Shown piece after piece: positions 9,992 to 16,106 of a stretch of 64,000 nt of DNA (its first letter is position 1; every line of letters begins with the position of its first letter). The DNA is from Promethearchaeota archaeon (GTDB lineage: Archaea; Asgardarchaeota; Lokiarchaeia; Sigyniarchaeales; SOKP01), in assembly GCA_048938005.1 (NCBI GenBank), contig JBHLMQ010000001.1:96001-160000 (forward strand), in the 5' to 3' direction. The position numbers and the translations under genes were made by a program. The notes below the pieces were generated by a model, which was given only the letters and a program-made list of their open reading frames with translations, was not told the DNA's origin and searched no databases.

Positions 9992-11410
9992 ATGGAAATT
10001 GAAAAGAAAATCCCCGTCCACATTGGATTATTCGGACATATTGACTCTGGAAAAACCAAAATTGCTTCAGTACTTAGTGAAATAATTTCTACAGCTGGTA
10101 TTGATGCTCATCCACAAAGCAAAGAGAGAGGGATTACAATAGATTTAGGATTTACAAGTTTTATGCTTGATCAATACTTAATCACATTAGTAGATGGTCC
10201 AGGTCATGCAGATCTAATAAAAATTAGCGCTTCCTCAGTAGAAATTATTGATTGTGCTTTAATTGTTATTGACATTAATAAAGGGCCTCAAGTTCAAACT
10301 GGTGAGCATATAATTATTGTTGAGTCGCTCAATATCAAAAAAATCATTGTTATCCTCAATAAAACTGATTTATTCTCTGGAAATCTCGATGAAGAAATAA
10401 AAAAAACAAGAAAATTTTTCGATTCAACTTCCTTTGGTTATAATGTGCCAATTTTTGCGGTTTCTGCGAAAGAAAAGATTGGATTTGAAGAATTAAAAAA
10501 AGGTATATTAGAAACAATAAATTTTCTAAAGATTGAAAGACAAACTAAAGGAGATATTATAATTCCTATTGATCATCATTTTCCAATAAAAGGTATGGGA
10601 GCAATATTAACAGGGACAATTTTGGTTGGAACGTTAAAAGTAAATCAAAACTTAGAAATATTGCCTGTAAAAACATCTGGTAGAGTTAAAACTATCCAAA
10701 TTTTCCACCAAAATGTTTATTCTGCAAAAGCAGGTGATAGAGTTGGCATTAATATGAAAGGTTTAGATTTGAAAAAGGTTTATCGAGGGTGTTATGCTAC
10801 AACCAATCCTAATGCTTTTGAATATTGCAATATAATTGAGGTAAAAGTAAATAATAATAAACTCTTCAAACCTAAAACCAATTTTGGTACTCAAATACAC
10901 ATTACTATTGGAATGGTGACTACTAGTGGAAATATTTATCCTTACTATGATTTGGATGGAAAAAGGATTCAAACAATTGTTTCAAATGAAAATAGAGGAT
11001 TTAAGGCCCTAATAATCTTAAAGGAAAAAGTTTTAATAAAAAAAAAGAAATCAATCATGCTATTAAGTCGATTAGATTTACCTCCAACTACTTTAAGAAT
11101 ATTGGGATCAGCAGAGCTATTGAAGATACATAATGAATCCCCTTTATTTCATAAATATAAAGTAAAAAGAGGCACCATCAAAAATCTAGAACATTCTCAA
11201 GGGATTATCTGTGTAGGATTAGCACAAAGCGCTACTGGGGCAAAAAAAATTGTGGGAAAAGAATTAGAACCCCCTTTTACTAAAATTTTAGATACATTCG
11301 GTTCAAAGGGTGCAGTAATCGTTGGGATTAGCGGTAAAGAGACAAAAATAAAGAGAGGAGATCCAGTATTTCTAAAAGAATTAAGGAGTTTTCAACTAAA
11401 AAACATTTAA
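9992..11410 (+). CDS. selB: Selenocysteine-specific elongation factor SelB/eEFSec
   Basis: GHIDSGKT, PQSKERGITIDLGF, DGPGH, NKTD, DHHFPIKGMG; near tRNA-Sec and SepSecS. Confidence 0.9.
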   Translation: MEIEKKIPVHIGLFGHIDSGKTKIASVLSEIISTAGIDAHPQSKERGITIDLGFTSFMLDQYLITLVDGPGHADLIKISASSVEIIDCALIVIDINKGPQVQTGEHIIIVESLNIKKIIVILNKTDLFSGNLDEEIKKTRKFFDSTSFGYNVPIFAVSAKEKIGFEELKKGILETINFLKIERQTKGDIIIPIDHHFPIKGMGAILTGTILVGTLKVNQNLEILPVKTSGRVKTIQIFHQNVYSAKAGDRVGINMKGLDLKKVYRGCYATTNPNAFEYCNIIEVKVNNNKLFKPKTNFGTQIHITIGMVTTSGNIYPYYDLDGKRIQTIVSNENRGFKALIILKEKVLIKKKKSIMLLSRLDLPPTTLRILGSAELLKIHNESPLFHKYKVKRGTIKNLEHSQGIICVGLAQSATGAKKIVGKELEPPFTKILDTFGSKGAVIVGISGKETKIKRGDPVFLKELRSFQLKNI

Positions 11411-11450
11411 ATTCCCAAAAATTTATATTATCTTAACAGAGGTGTTAAAA

Positions 11451-11885
11451 TTGGAAAAAGCTGATGGCTCTGAAATTTCAATAAGCCAAGATATACTAGA
11501 CGAATTAATGCGTGCTTTAGAAAGGCTAGAAGCTTCGACAGATTTAGAAGGAACTGCAGTGGTTTCAAAAACAGGGTTAAGAATTGCGAGTTCTGAAACT
11601 GCTGATGTTGTATGGGATATTTACAGTGCGAGCCCCGCAACATTAATTTCATTAGGTGAAAAAATTAGTCAAGGATTAGAACAAGGTGAATTAAGGGATA
11701 TTGTTATTCGAGGGACTAAAGGGTATACAATTATCTTGGTTGGTTCTGCTGATAATAATTTTATGCTATTTACGAATTGCAAAAAAGGATATAAATTAGG
11801 GTACTATTTCCACAAAATAAGAAAAGCCTTCAAGGAAATGGAACCTGTTTTAAGAAAAATTGAAACTAAAAATATTAATTATTAA
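11451..11885 (+). CDS. Roadblock/LC7 (LAMTOR-like) protein
   Basis: LEGTAVVSKTGLRIAS...LGEKISQGLEQGELRDIVIRGTKGY; GAGGTG SD before TTG. Confidence 0.85.
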   Translation: MEKADGSEISISQDILDELMRALERLEASTDLEGTAVVSKTGLRIASSETADVVWDIYSASPATLISLGEKISQGLEQGELRDIVIRGTKGYTIILVGSADNNFMLFTNCKKGYKLGYYFHKIRKAFKEMEPVLRKIETKNINY

Positions 11886-11961: not shown

Positions 11962-12351
11962 TTACTTTATTAGCCATTTTACTTCATCTCCATCATTTAA
12001 AGGGTATTCCGGTGCACCTACATTTGGGAAATTATTATTAACCATATAAACCCATCCCCCACTAATTCCATCGATTTCTGATACGTAAATGCCCCAGCTA
12101 AAATCTACATATTCAATATCGCACCATTTGTCTAAAGCATCAAAAGCCGTTGTTTTTCCATTATCCAAAGTAAAGTTTTCATGGACTCTAATAGTTCCAT
12201 TTTTATAATCAACAATTAACGTAATATTTTTGACGCTTTCTTTTGGAGTTTCGGTTGGAGTATAATATAGGTTGAAATTAGCTATTATAAGCAATGAAAA
12301 ACTGGTTATCCCTGCAATTGCTATAATGAAAAATTTTAATTTCTTATTCAT
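11962..12351 (-). CDS. DUF4430 (transcobalamin C-terminal-like) membrane-anchored protein
   Basis: N-terminal TM, TAFDAL, GIYVSEIDG, GWVYMVN, LNDGDEVKW. Confidence 0.8.
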   Translation of the reverse strand: MNKKLKFFIIAIAGITSFSLLIIANFNLYYTPTETPKESVKNITLIVDYKNGTIRVHENFTLDNGKTTAFDALDKWCDIEYVDFSWGIYVSEIDGISGGWVYMVNNNFPNVGAPEYPLNDGDEVKWLIK

Positions 12352-12393
12352 AGAAGGGGTTCACTAATTCGAAAAAATAAAAATTAAAAATTT

Positions 12394-13206
12394 TTAATTT
12401 GTTCTTATTTTCTTTATTAAATTATGTATCACAATTATTAAAGTTGTAGCAATTACAGTACTAAGCAGCAATAATGGAAACGATGGTATTACTGGTTCAG
12501 TTTTTTGAAAATTTAACTCATAATCACTTAATTGTAGCTCGAGATCTGGACCAAAACTGCTCTGAACTTTACTATAAACTAAAATACCAGTTATTTTATC
12601 ATAAATCATCGTACAATTTTGATTCTTGTTATCTTGTTTAAAAGCAAATTCAACAATGTAATCATATTCCTTATAAATTAAACTTCCTTGCATGAATCCT
12701 GGCCCGGATACCTGGTCTATTGCCAAGGTTATTAAGTTTTCTAAATTATTAATTTGAATTAGAAAACCAGAATGAAACGAGTTATAACCAATAGCTAAAG
12801 ATAATCCCGCTTCGCTATTAGATACATTATAGAATGTAGTGTTAGTAATTAGTATTCCTGCTACATTTTCCATGAAAGTTATGTTAATATAGGGAATAGG
12901 GTTGTTAAAACAAGATGGAGCATATGCTAAAGGATCATCATCATAAAATCCTGTGAAATTAACAATGATCTGCCCTCCAGGATTTGTAATAGCATCACCT
13001 CTTGAAGACCAATTTAAATCGAGCCAGGTAAATTTAGAATCAAATTGCGTTATGTTATATATATAAGGTCTATTCAAATCTAATTGTTGATAATAGTTTA
13101 CTGGAATAGTATTATTTGCCATAGTTGAAGCAATTGTTGCAGAGAATATTAGTGGAACTATCATTAAACAAATAAGTATTTTAATTGAAATTCGATTAAG
13201 TCTCAT
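12394..13206 (-). CDS. Secreted/surface protein with Loki-CTERM-like anchor
   Basis: Signal peptide; C-terminal IPSFP + TM + basic tail. Confidence 0.65.
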   Translation of the reverse strand: MRLNRISIKILICLMIVPLIFSATIASTMANNTIPVNYYQQLDLNRPYIYNITQFDSKFTWLDLNWSSRGDAITNPGGQIIVNFTGFYDDDPLAYAPSCFNNPIPYINITFMENVAGILITNTTFYNVSNSEAGLSLAIGYNSFHSGFLIQINNLENLITLAIDQVSGPGFMQGSLIYKEYDYIVEFAFKQDNKNQNCTMIYDKITGILVYSKVQSSFGPDLELQLSDYELNFQKTEPVIPSFPLLLLSTVIATTLIIVIHNLIKKIRTN

Positions 13207-13321
13207 AATTATCTATTTTTTTCTTTAGTTTTTTATATAATAATATAAGCGCTTTTCCAAAGTGATTCTATTTTCATTTTTAGATCATAATTTTTAATAT
13301 GATTTTATAAAAGTAACATTT

Positions 13322-13403
13322 AATTTAAAGATAGGGTAACTTACCCTATAAAAACTTGGATTCTTACTCTTAAAAGATTGAACGTAGAACATGTGAAAAA
13401 TTT
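13322..13403. repeat. Left copy of ~80-bp imperfect inverted repeat with perfect palindrome ATAGGGTAA-C-TTACCCTAT (13331-13349)
   Basis: Aligns with the reverse complement of 15171-15252. Confidence 0.85.
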
Positions 13404-13501
13404 AAAAATTTGCTTCTTTTAAAATGATTGAGATTTTTAAATAATACATGATTTAATCAAGACAAACAAGAAAATTTTATTTTAGAGAGAAGAATTAAAA
13501 T

Positions 13502-14041
13502 ATGTCATCCAATGATATTAAAGAAAAATTTGGAAAGGAAAGAATTACCAATGAAATTAAAGAGAGTTACGAACATAAATTAGTCCAAAGACTCGAAGCT
13601 CCCCTTCTAGGATTAATTTTCTTCAGTATTGCGCTATGGGGTTCGAAGTTATTCACGTTTATCTCTCCAGGAACGAGTATAAAGTTCTTTATTGGAATTT
13701 ATGAAATTCATTTCCACCATTTTCATTATGGCATCATTGCATTGGCAATTGGATTAATACTTACTTTTTTTGAAGGAAAATGGTTTGTGAGAATTGAACA
13801 TATTCTATTTGGTGCGGGTTTAGGATTTATCGTTGATGAATATTGGTTGCTTTTAATATTGAATGATACAACTTATTTCGGTCCACAATCACAATTTATC
13901 TCCATGATGATTGGAATAATAATTACTTTGATTTATGTGGTAATAATCGTTGGAGTTTATTTTTATACGAGAGGAGAGCGAAAACTTTGGAAAGAGCTAT
14001 ATGACGCAGTAAAATCCGGCAAAATAAAAATGGATATATAA
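13502..14041 (+). CDS. Membrane protein with His-rich motif
   Basis: About 4 TM segments, EIHFHHFHYG and GLGFIVDE motifs. Confidence 0.7.
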   Translation: MSSNDIKEKFGKERITNEIKESYEHKLVQRLEAPLLGLIFFSIALWGSKLFTFISPGTSIKFFIGIYEIHFHHFHYGIIALAIGLILTFFEGKWFVRIEHILFGAGLGFIVDEYWLLLILNDTTYFGPQSQFISMMIGIIITLIYVVIIVGVYFYTRGERKLWKELYDAVKSGKIKMDI

Positions 14042-14053
14042 AAATTTTTTTCT

Positions 14054-14518
14054 TTAAAGTAAAGCTTTATTTATAATTTTTTCTTTTAATCCTTGCAGTG
14101 CTTTTTGCCATGCATTTTTAAAATAATTGCGAGCTTTTTGCCACTCTGCATCCTTTCTCCAGCCTGTATGGAATAAATGAATCAGTGTTTTATTTGGATC
14201 TTTTTCATTTTGAGAAAAAAATACAATCACATGGGTGAGAGGATCAGCAATATTCATAAAAGATTGAAAATCAACAGGTCCCTTCCAATTAAATGATATA
14301 AATTTATATCTCTCGATTCCAGTAATTTTACAGCCAATTGTGCTATTTTTTTCTCTGTTCTCAGGTTCCCAAAAAAGTTCATATTTCCCTCCAACCTTGG
14401 GATCTACATCAGCTTTTTCAGTTAACCAGCTCTCTAATAATTCATTGACAGTAAATAAATCAAATGCAGCAGATATGTTACAATGTATTTCTTCTTTAAT
14501 CAGAATAATGTCCTCCAT
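14054..14518 (-). CDS. SRPBCC/AHSA1-like domain protein
   Basis: DPKVGGKYELFW, ISFNW, LFHTGW. Confidence 0.85.
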   Translation of the reverse strand: MEDIILIKEEIHCNISAAFDLFTVNELLESWLTEKADVDPKVGGKYELFWEPENREKNSTIGCKITGIERYKFISFNWKGPVDFQSFMNIADPLTHVIVFFSQNEKDPNKTLIHLFHTGWRKDAEWQKARNYFKNAWQKALQGLKEKIINKALL

Positions 14519-14688
14519 AATTATGCACTAAAAATTAGTAACTGAGTAATTTTATTCTTTTAATTTAGTATTAGTTATTCACAGATTATTTAAAGATTTT
14601 TTTATAAAAATGTCAAAAATTTATATATATTAATATAATAATTAGTTTTAGCAAATAAAATCAAATCCAAAATAAAAAGGTAGAAATC

Positions 14689-15105
14689 ATGTCAGAACTA
14701 GAAAGAAGTATTAATGGATTAAGTGAATTTGTTAAAGCCATAAAAGAGGGGTATGAATTATTAAATGCTAATGAAAAATTTAAGGAAGAGTTTAAAGATG
14801 CAAATTTTAAAATACTTCTAAATCCAAAAGACAGATAATATGCTGCTTTAATAACAGTTGAAAATGGAACTGTGTCCGTTGGGGGGATATAAAACAAACC
14901 AAAAGAAAATATATCGAAAGAAAAGTTGGGTTGGGATAGTTATATGAAAACTACAAGGCAAATATTTAAGGATATCCGTGATGGAACGCTTTCAAGTCGT
15001 GATATAAGAGAGAAGGTTCTCGCTCGTAAGATAAAAGTTAAAGGATTAAAATATTTAGCATCATTTAGTCAAATGAGTGCTTTACGAAGAGGAGATACTA
15101 AATAA
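14689..15105 (+). pseudogene. SCP2 (sterol carrier protein 2)-like pseudogene with two in-frame TAA stops
   Basis: One frame from ATG 14689 to TAA 15103 reads ...FKILLNPKDR*YAALITVENGTVSVGGI*NKPK...WDSYMKTT...VLARKIKVKG; stops at 14836 and 14890; AAGGTAG SD-like motif upstream. Confidence 0.6.
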
Positions 15106-15170
15106 GACATTAAAATTTACTAGATATCAACTAAAATATTCTTTAGACCATTTTCTTTAATTCACTTTGA

Positions 15171-15252
15171 AAATATTTCATACGTTCTATTCTTATTATT
15201 TGAAGAGTAAAAGTCCGGAGCTCGTAGGGTAAGTTACCCGTATCTTTAAATT
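15171..15252. repeat. Right copy of the inverted repeat; palindrome GGGTAA-G-TTACCC (15227-15239) followed by TTTAAA
   Basis: Reverse complement aatttaaagatacgggtaacttaccctac... matches 13322 onward. Confidence 0.85.
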
Positions 15253-15305
15253 CTTTCTATACTTAATAATTAACATATCTAAAAAAAAATTACACAGAGA
15301 TTATA

Positions 15306-15950
15306 TTGGAATTAAAATCAGAAGCAAAAAAACCTAGTGAAAAAGTGGAATTTATAGATACTGAGCAAGAAAGAGTAAGTCATTCAATATTGTTGGAAAG
15401 AAGCTCTTTTCGAATTGCTTTAATCAGCACTTTTACTGCATTAGCTATCGTTTTAGGGTACTTGTTAGCATATATACCTAATATAGAGTTATTTACTTTA
15501 ACCATATTTTTATCAGGTTTTATCCTAGGTAAAAGAGATGGTATAATTGTTGGCTTTTTAAGTTCACTTATTTTCTGTTTTTTTAATCCTCTAGGGGCAT
15601 CTCCTTTACCGCTTTTAACTTTCCAATTAATTCATTATTCAATAACAGGATTAGTAGGGTCTTTATCCAACACTTATTTGAAAAAGAAGGATTTCTTTAA
15701 TCCAAACAAAGATTTATACATATTTTTTGTAATGGCTTTTTTTGGAGTACTTGGAGCATTAATCACATTGACTTTTCAGATATTATCTACATTAGGTTAT
15801 ACTTTTTCTTATGTTGGCACTATCAATGGATTTTTACCCGTGTTTCTTACAAATATAGCTTTTACTGCTATACATATAATTGGAAACACACTTGGATTCA
15901 TCTTTATATTGCCAGGACTAATCCAGCTTATAAACAGGATGCTTCATTAA
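15306..15950 (+). CDS. ECF transporter S component (CbrT-like, possibly cobalamin)
   Basis: IALISTFTALAIVL..IPNIE, GFILG...GIIVG, HIIGN; about 6 TM. Confidence 0.75.
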   Translation: MELKSEAKKPSEKVEFIDTEQERVSHSILLERSSFRIALISTFTALAIVLGYLLAYIPNIELFTLTIFLSGFILGKRDGIIVGFLSSLIFCFFNPLGASPLPLLTFQLIHYSITGLVGSLSNTYLKKKDFFNPNKDLYIFFVMAFFGVLGALITLTFQILSTLGYTFSYVGTINGFLPVFLTNIAFTAIHIIGNTLGFIFILPGLIQLINRMLH

Positions 15951-15962
15951 AAAAATAAGAAT

Positions 15963-16106
15963 TTAAAAAATAGCTAATAATGCTATCGCAGATGGCAACA
16001 TCAAAACTAATATTAATACTATACAAATTAACATACAGATATTTCTCTTTTTTCTCTCCTCATTACTATCATCAAAATCATTCTCATTGAAATTTTCTAC
16101 TTCCAT
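15963..16106 (-). CDS. Small tail-anchored protein (47 aa, not in ORF track)
   Basis: MEVENFNENDFDDSNEERKKRNICMLICIVLILVLMLPSAIALLAIF. Confidence 0.5.
   Translation of the reverse strand: MEVENFNENDFDDSNEERKKRNICMLICIVLILVLMLPSAIALLAIF

Follow-up and report, generated by a model that had tools for sequence, protein, structure and literature searches.

A pair of inverted repeats lies at positions 13322-13403 and 15171-15252 of a 64,000-nucleotide stretch of the genome of a Promethearchaeota archaeon (the window; contig JBHLMQ010000001.1, positions 96,001 to 160,000) and brackets a short cassette of genes. The two repeat arms probably represent twin promoters that face outward, away from the cassette, and share an operator-like dyad, here termed D1, for a single regulator of a corrinoid-related regulon; the left arm would serve the gene of a surface protein, P270, and the right arm the gene of an S component of an energy-coupling factor (ECF) transporter, ECFS. 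The arms appear to be the two faces of an ancestral divergent promoter region between these genes, split by gene insertion, and not the products of a recent duplication. This explanation as a whole is held with good confidence. The repeat pair is thus an operator-bearing promoter pair of a known kind, ordinary cis-regulatory DNA, as distinct from a mobile element, an inverton or a riboswitch; what is new, to judge from sequence comparisons, is the specific operator and the regulon that D1 appears to define in Asgard archaea.

The inverted repeat pair

Global alignment of the left arm with the reverse complement of the right arm leaves 63 of 83 columns identical with a single 1-nt indel, and the blastn match spans 83 nt with 75.9% identity (E 2.9e-8). 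When the two intergenic regions that carry the arms are aligned locally the score is 71, against a mean of 24.2 (standard deviation 3.3, maximum 39) in 1000 dinucleotide-preserving shuffles, none of which reaches 71, and against at most 46 among 796 other real intergenic regions of the genome. The ~80-bp inverted repeat pair from which the original prediction started is thus real, and in the local alignment the similarity extends outward to about 13291-13403 and 15171-15285, taking in ~35 nt on the gene side of a TTTAAA box. The internal palindrome that had been reported for each arm, GGGTAANTTACCC, is likewise present: allowing at most one mismatch it occurs twice in the window, where 0.01 occurrences are expected and none of 100 shuffles has two or more, and exact matches in the whole 3.72-Mb genome (29.8% G+C) number two, both of them in the arms. 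A genome-wide blastn search with the arm had been proposed as a check; it returns no copy beyond the two arms, and no third copy of the 126-nt module was found in the genome by blastn.

Contigs from other samples span the arms in the same orientation as the window, X2 and X3 on the left and X3 and X4 on the right, in a comparison that comprised the contigs of four runs, in some of which parts of the stretch are uncovered and from which rare forms could escape. Since independent samples' contigs cross each arm in this way, an assembly artefact is an unlikely source of the repeat pair.

Architecture of the probable promoter modules

The blocks conserved between the window arms are exactly two dyads (D2 and D1), a TATA-like box and a presumed start region, which argues that the arms are two copies of a whole promoter. 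Each arm would be a complete archaeal promoter of ~115 bp carrying an operator-like dyad, with transcription starting on the outer side, laid out as follows.

13291..13403, minus strand: left promoter module, reading leftwards to P270 as D2, spacer, D1, TATA-like box and presumed start region (extent from the local alignment).
13365..13389, minus strand: left D2, an imperfect dyad of the TTCTA-N-AAGAGTA type, upstream of D1.
13332..13348, no strand assigned: left D1, operator-like dyad TAGGGTAACTTACCCTA, core palindrome at 13334-13346, weight-matrix score 28.8, the highest in the genome.
13324..13329, minus strand: left TTTAAA TATA-like box, separated from D1 by 2 nt and situated 118 nt before the P270 ATG, with the same layout in orthologues.
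15171..15285, plus strand: right promoter module, reading rightwards to the ECF S-component gene, aligned with orthologous promoters.
15185..15209, plus strand: right D2 dyad, aligned with orthologous promoters.
15225..15241, no strand assigned: right D1 dyad TAGGGTAAGTTACCCGT, core palindrome at 15227-15239, weight-matrix score 22.2.
15245..15250, plus strand: right TTTAAA TATA-like box, 3 nt past D1 and 55 nt before the TTG start.

In general form D1 is a 16-17-bp dyad, TAGG-N8/9-CCTA, which in the window arms reads TAGGGTAAGTTACCC(T/G)(A/T). D2 is an imperfect dyad with arms of the types CTAYTCT and AGARTAG and a G+C-richer spacer, ~15 nt upstream of D1. It is present in many ECFS promoters of the genus and in the P270 promoters of this species and of three related genomes (G010, G023 and G066), and the D2+D1 composite occurs in this genome only as the two window copies.

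Conservation among relatives and origin of the inverted arrangement

Within the genus the gene order SelB-Roadblock/LC7-DUF4430-P270, and beyond the interval ECFS-L15-L30, is kept, and the content of the P270-ECFS interval varies. The interval holds a gene for an SRPBCC protein alone in G005, G012, G023 and G066, and a gene for a 179-aa membrane protein (Memb179) together with SRPBCC in G019 and G006, and in some species it includes extra genes for HxlR, DUF6144, YhhN or leucine-rich repeat proteins; the halves of the P270/ECFS region are now 1.2-4 kb apart in this genus, with unrelated genes between them. When upstream regions are read by eye, D1 with a nearby A/T-rich TATA-like box is seen at nine of nine P270 loci and at seven of seven ECFS loci.

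A wider set of 27 archaeal ECFS loci was taken from public genomes, several of which are the same as the G-numbered ones. Within 170 nt upstream of the gene, D1 is found without mismatch at nine of these loci, with one mismatch at 12 and with two at five, and is absent from one; the corresponding figures for 1500 random upstream windows of this genome are 4, 36, 397 and 1063. At one mismatch or fewer, D1 therefore precedes 21 of 27 ECFS loci as against 40 of 1500 random windows (2.7%). In 25 of the 26 site-bearing loci the distance from the beginning of the dyad to the start codon is 60-100 nt, and in most of the 26 an A/T-rich box follows the dyad directly. ECFS orthologues were found in 53 of the 61 family genomes sampled, in none of four from genus g12 and in none of 14 from family f2.

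In genera g14, g15 and g16 the P270 homologue and ECFS are direct divergent neighbours, 116-453 nt apart, without the cassette; the homology of these neighbours to P270 was confirmed by BLASTP, and a tandem two-domain form of the protein is frequent there. The P270/ECFS intergenic regions of these genera contain one or two D1 sites and TATA boxes facing both directions, and D1 with the TATA-like box is common to four genera of one Promethearchaeota family. Because D1 and the TATA box are kept in sister genera that lack the cassette, the repeats belong to the flanking genes and not to a cargo; the cassette, which is absent from g14-g16 where D1 lies between the two units, has therefore entered an old bidirectional promoter region as an insertion that is variable and specific to the lineage. 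The course of events would have been that a divergent P270-ECFS promoter region, intact in the sister genera, was split in this genus by the insertion of unrelated genes, namely the SRPBCC gene and, in this species, also the membrane protein gene and a gene that has since decayed.

The original prediction had offered two readings of the repeat pair. The first makes the arms the terminal inverted repeats, or the recombination sites, of an invertible segment or of a cargo element that is not autonomous, and it can point to an inverted pair that brackets a variable gene set and to a P270-ECFS interval that differs among species. The empty site of such an element should, however, lack the repeats, and D1 and the TATA boxes remain between P270 and ECFS where the cassette is missing. 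There are also only two copies in the genome and no multi-copy family, no recombinase or transposase domain is found in the cassette with Pfam, and no direct repeat of the target-duplication kind is seen outside the arms when the flanks are read by eye, as the earlier reader had already remarked. Inversion of the segment is further opposed by the inner genes, which do not differ in orientation among the three genomes that possess both Memb179 and SRPBCC, and by the contigs of the four runs described above, which contain no strand-change joint (rare forms could be missed). The first reading is accordingly abandoned as extremely improbable. The second, a duplicated promoter module, is supported as far as the promoter is concerned, with the dyad just upstream of a TTTAAA box facing both outer units and conserved in four genera, whereas the duplication gives way to the two faces of an old divergent promoter.

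That only two copies occur in this genome would also suit an assembly artefact or a single local event of inverted duplication without function, and for such an outcome the motif had been expected to be absent elsewhere and the cassette invariant in relatives. The motif is instead found across genera and the cassette content varies by species; with the elements conserved in four genera, and with both arms covered by the contigs of independent samples, this alternative is given next to no credence.

One variant was met in a g14 species (G109, locus L138, positions 1037-1467), where both D1 copies share the end GGCTA in place of CCTA. This hints that the two sites changed in concert, or that they co-vary with the factor that would bind them.

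A probable DNA site rather than an RNA structure

D1 and D2 are both foldable dyads and a T-rich stretch follows D1, features that a structured RNA (a leader, a small RNA or a terminator hairpin) would also display. Against an RNA stands, first, that no Rfam family matches positions 12300-16100 at E<=1, the Cobalamin models included, so that a cobalamin riboswitch has no match there. In TAGGTTAAGTTTCCTA, the form in which D1 is most often found, pairing is limited to the outer four bases, from which it follows that sequence, not pairing, is what is kept. Compensation is lacking both at positions 5 and 13 of the 17-mer, which occur as G..C, A..T, A..C and G..T, and in the varying D2 arms, and the whole block sits upstream of a conserved TATA box at a near-constant distance to the start codon. 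A protein-binding site would fit the block better than a hairpin, and an RNA reading is judged very improbable.

A probable corrinoid-related regulon

A weight-matrix scan of this genome gives three sites with scores of at least 22, the two arms and one other, the next best site scoring 17.8. The third strong site is located 111 nt upstream of a corrinoid-protein gene (PF02310 and PF02607), which is followed by a gene for a URO-D-type methyltransferase. The counterparts of this corrinoid-protein gene in G021, G017, G019 and G018 are likewise preceded by D1. Weaker weight-matrix matches on contigs C40 and C63 and a D2-like stretch on contig C83 were taken as chance, their neighbours being unrelated genes.

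Across the genus (54 genomes) 53 matches to the 16-mer pattern TAGKNNAASTTTCCTA are counted, compared with 36 for the reversed control. Most of these are located before P270 (25) or ECFS (14), and four precede corrinoid-protein operons (three of the 53 placements were made by coordinates alone). Three more are flanked by a BtuF-like/FecCD transporter on one side and on the other by an archaeal CobT (TIGR00303, above cut-off), and two lie before an operon with ThyX and a CobA/CobO/BtuR adenosyltransferase (PF02572). Of the other five, three are internal to long reading frames and two precede the gene of a RagA-like GTPase. A protein of 399 aa with a Gtr1/RagA-type GTPase and Roadblock/LC7 domains (L078 1097-2296 and L079 1084-2283) has a conserved D1-like 16-mer ~200 nt upstream of its gene in two species.

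Genus g14 yields 31 matches to TAGKNNAASTTTCCTA against 19 for the control. At the 14 loci examined there, D1 occurs in tandem before a BtuF-FecCD-ATPase transporter beside CbiZ (PF01955) and a histidine phosphatase at two loci, before a corrinoid protein and URO-D methyltransferase at four (a fifth being ambiguous), within the P270/ECFS pair at five, and inside a dehydrogenase gene at two, which are orthologous. No Feo, ZIP, ferritin or other metal-homeostasis gene is present at those D1 sites of the two genera whose surroundings were examined. Across the two genera the putative D1 targets are mostly genes of corrinoid uptake, salvage and use, which points to a corrinoid-related regulon, and both units flanking the window arms are probably vitamin-B12-related. 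The idea of a regulon in the original prediction is borne out in that D1 recurs before other corrinoid-related operons, although it is not genome-wide here, with only three strong sites.

Candidate regulators

The D1 17-mer, compared by eye, equals the IdeR/DtxR consensus TTAGGTTAGSCTAACCTAA, as given in PMC8464063, at 13 of 17 positions, which include the outer quartets with their 9-bp spacing and the central G/C. TroR, an archaeal DtxR-family factor of Haloferax, binds TTTAGGC-NNN-CCTAAAANAN, often in tandem, before iron-uptake genes (PMC10783522). The genome encodes three DtxR/MntR-family proteins that keep the CxxEH metal-site motif. Two are encoded beside Feo or ZIP transporters, and the third, on contig C55, is an orphan; every genus of the family has orthologues of the orphan with at least 64% identity, and since this holds even for g12, which yielded no ECFS, its phylogenetic profile is uninformative. 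Membership of the D1 factor in the DtxR family is a tentative proposal, short of an even chance.

The same observations lend themselves to a regulon for iron or manganese under a DtxR-family repressor, with operator and promoter layout unchanged and the B12 flavour incidental. The likeness to the IdeR/DtxR box, the TroR sites before iron-uptake genes and the three metal-site proteins would all agree with it, and FecCD/Peripla_BP_2 transporters, which carry siderophores and haem as well, could together with the ECF unit import a metal chelate. The examined D1 sites of both genera, however, lack metal-homeostasis genes. Their targets have corrinoid-specific domains (PF02310 with PF02607, TIGR00303 CobT and PF02572) or adjoin PF01955 CbiZ, and where a DtxR-family gene has a metal-transporter gene beside it, in two cases, the transporter gene is preceded by other palindromes, not by D1. 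A metal regulon is for these reasons considered unlikely. One such palindrome, TTTACGA-N6-TCGTAAA, occurs twice at ~33857-34312 of contig C56, upstream of a ZIP-family transporter gene beside a DtxR/MntR-family gene, and is likely to be a separate metal operator.

Other candidates for the factor were rejected. An HxlR-family gene is found beside SRPBCC inside the island, between SRPBCC and ECFS, in G006 and G049 (L019 4255-4659 and L073 2059-2475), and HxlR has no homologue in this genome (tblastn, E<=1e-3). A fusion of B12-binding and DNA-binding domains was sought among the 16 PF02310 matches of the genome, none of which is regulator-like; of the four whose protein sequences were read, one is KamE-like, one a mutase small subunit and two are corrinoid proteins, and the remaining 12 were judged only by frame length. 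An ArsR-type gene near D1 in locus L167 has no orthologue in this genome, the best match being 30% identical.

Genes beside and between the arms

In the window the order of genes is an aSelB-like GTPase, a Roadblock/LC7 protein, the DUF4430 protein, P270, the left arm, Memb179, SRPBCC, the decayed gene, the right arm, ECFS and the end of a ribosomal-protein operon. The features around the arms are listed below.

11962..12351, minus strand: DUF4430 protein, downstream of P270 on the same strand (PF14478, E 1.3e-11).
12394..13206, minus strand: P270, with signal peptide, predicted LolA-like half-barrel ectodomain and C-terminal membrane anchor; no Pfam match.
13502..14041, plus strand: Memb179, membrane protein of 179 aa, an inserted gene that only some species have.
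14054..14518, minus strand: AHSA1/SRPBCC protein (PF08327, E 3.9e-13), an inserted gene found between the P270 and ECFS units throughout the genus.
14689..15108, plus strand: decayed inserted gene with two in-frame TAA codons; family unnamed.
15306..15950, plus strand: ECFS, S component of an ECF transporter, 214 aa, TTG start; Pfam scores below the cut-offs, AlphaFold2 (AF2) model.
Beyond ECFS, right flank: end of the ribosomal-protein operon (L15, L30, S5 and others).

The model of P270 (mean pLDDT 84.4) has a LolA-like open half-barrel, matched by Foldseek with probabilities of 0.96-0.99 at TM scores of only 0.2-0.35. None of its 118 homologues is a named protein, and wherever the source name gives an organism this is an Asgard metagenome-assembled genome (MAG), so that P270 represents an Asgard-only, surface-anchored family with a predicted half-barrel. 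In many species the protein has a tandem two-domain form of ~430-600 aa (loci L135, L136 and L074), and it is invariably paired with a DUF4430 protein. DUF4430 is the domain found at the C-terminus of transcobalamins, as stated in PMC4350170.

The AF2 model of ECFS (pLDDT 77.6) shows the six-helix fold of S components, the top Foldseek match being PanT (6zg3_C; TM 0.59, probability 1.00), with 4rfs_S, RibU, FolT and ThiT also matched; as far as a model can tell, the S-component fold is settled. The specificity for B12 is inferred from the shared operator and the DUF4430 neighbour alone. The closest non-archaeal relatives of ECFS come from KSB1 and Cytophagia MAGs (36-37% identity), and the KSB1 gene (L111) has no D1 upstream.

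The content of the cassette, a membrane protein, an SRPBCC protein and a decayed gene, is as originally described, except that the 'SCP2-like' label of the decayed gene has to be dropped: no Pfam or NCBIfam family is matched by its read-through product or by any of three intact orthologues. The family of this gene has one to four matches per genome in the genus, and intact orthologues, 73-83% identical, occupy in some species the same place beside ECFS. At 9992-11885 of the window the gene for a SelB-like elongation factor is directly followed by the Roadblock/LC7 gene, a pair conserved throughout the genus.

Proposed mechanism and its difficulties

In the mechanism proposed for the twin promoters, two modules of ~115 bp would face outward, the left arm driving the P270-DUF4430 unit and the right arm the ECF S-component gene. 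A dimeric transcription factor, or two dimers as with IdeR, would bind D1. D1 ends 2-3 nt upstream of TTTAAA, and its proximal half therefore lies where the TFB-recognition element would sit beside the TATA box, a position from which the factor could control recruitment of TBP and TFB. One factor would thereby co-regulate three units of this genome, the two outward promoters and the operon of the corrinoid protein and methyltransferase. Repression is the first choice, put at slightly better than even, with a co-repressor-bound factor hindering TFB/TBP recruitment; it is preferred because D1 overlaps the core promoter and because the DtxR-family factors IdeR and TroR repress uptake genes when metal-bound. 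Activation by recruitment is a less probable alternative mode, and is argued for by a TFB-recognition position that is not purine-rich and by a regulon in which genes for uptake stand together with genes for corrinoid use, as would be expected if available corrinoid acted as an inducer. As the targets are mostly corrinoid genes, the signal is most likely corrinoid or cobalt status, the main rival being a plain iron or manganese signal.

Several observations weigh against this explanation. D1 precedes five of the 30 corrinoid-protein loci examined and one of the seven corrinoid-protein paralogues of this genome, and is missing before the counterparts in G043, G056, G024 and G041 and before other paralogues. 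Matches to the loose pattern TAGG-N1-2-AA-N-TT-N1-2-CCTA number 125 in the genus and those to its reversed control 140, which is no enrichment; only the narrower 16-mer stands out. D1 also comes as both 16-mers and 17-mers, which is unusual for one factor. CobT, BtuF, FecCD, CbiZ and ThyX were not found in this genome, and CobO is present without D1, so the B12 theme rests here on DUF4430 and one operon. The fold of P270 is LolA-like, a fold that is usually lipid-binding, with no resemblance to a known B12 binder; the nearest solved folds of ECFS are PanT and FolT, and a B12-specific S component is absent among its fold matches. No D1 lies near any of the three DtxR-family genes of this genome. 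The left TTTAAA, at 118 nt from the ATG, may not be the main P270 promoter, since a second TATA-like stretch is closer to the gene, and D2 is not accounted for by the mechanism.

A broader proposal would be that a protein regulator, possibly a DtxR/MntR-family paralogue sensing cobalt or corrinoid, controls through D1 a family-wide Asgard regulon of corrinoid acquisition and use, including an undescribed ECF-type B12 importer with LolA-like half-barrel and transcobalamin-like DUF4430 surface proteins. This remains speculative and is rather doubted at present; if true, the D1 regulon would be an archaeal, DNA-level counterpart of the bacterial B12 riboswitch regulon.

Significance

To our knowledge almost nothing is known of specific gene regulation in Asgard archaea. 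A literature search returned no paper joining Asgard with cobalamin, ECF and corrinoid, and of nine papers on Asgard, regulon and binding motif none concerned D1, as judged from titles and the openings of abstracts. Rodionov and co-workers are said to have described in 2003, in the Journal of Biological Chemistry, a candidate palindromic DNA signal before B12 genes in some archaea, the 'CBL-box', together with a hypothetical protein regulator; Asgard genomes did not yet exist at that time. D1 may overlap with this signal.

With the present reading a candidate new mobile element is removed and a conserved putative operator with a small Asgard regulon is exposed in its place. The repeat pair itself is of modest interest and the regulon that it reveals of moderate interest. 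D1 provides a concrete 17-bp bait for finding the regulator, and it would tie corrinoid metabolism to an ECF S component of unassigned substrate and to two surface proteins known only from Asgard archaea. The case also illustrates that gene insertion into a divergent promoter can mimic transposon ends.

Comparison with known systems

Inverted repeats of tens of bases around a short segment are a feature that the window arms have in common with miniature inverted-repeat transposable elements, insertion sequence ends and invertible promoter segments. They differ from all of these in having no recombinase, target duplication or multi-copy family, and in being present at cargo-less sites. Divergent promoter regions with shared operators are a closer match, with two outward core promoters and operator copies between them, an arrangement seen in compact form in the sister genera; the difference is that the halves are here separated by unrelated genes, hence the look of element ends.

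Among operators, D1 resembles the IdeR/DtxR iron boxes in its TAGG/CCTA outer quartets 9 bp apart and its central G/C, and the TroR motif in being of the TAGG..CCTA type, tandem sites occurring for D1 too. It departs from the IdeR/DtxR boxes in its inner quartets, RTAA/TTAY in place of TTAG/CTAA, and in that many D1 sites are 16-mers. In contrast with IdeR, DtxR and TroR, the putative D1 targets are corrinoid-related and not iron genes, and no DtxR-family gene lies beside a D1 site.

Bacterial cobalamin-riboswitch regulons comprise B12 transporters of the BtuFCD and ECF types, salvage genes and corrinoid-linked enzymes, and the set of putative D1 targets is of the same kind. Archaea in general are not known to use the bacterial B12 riboswitch. 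Regulation of btuCDF-type transporters by B12 is noted in PMC8123684. D1 differs from the bacterial regulons in the nature of the element, which is a DNA dyad upstream of a TATA box and not an RNA leader.

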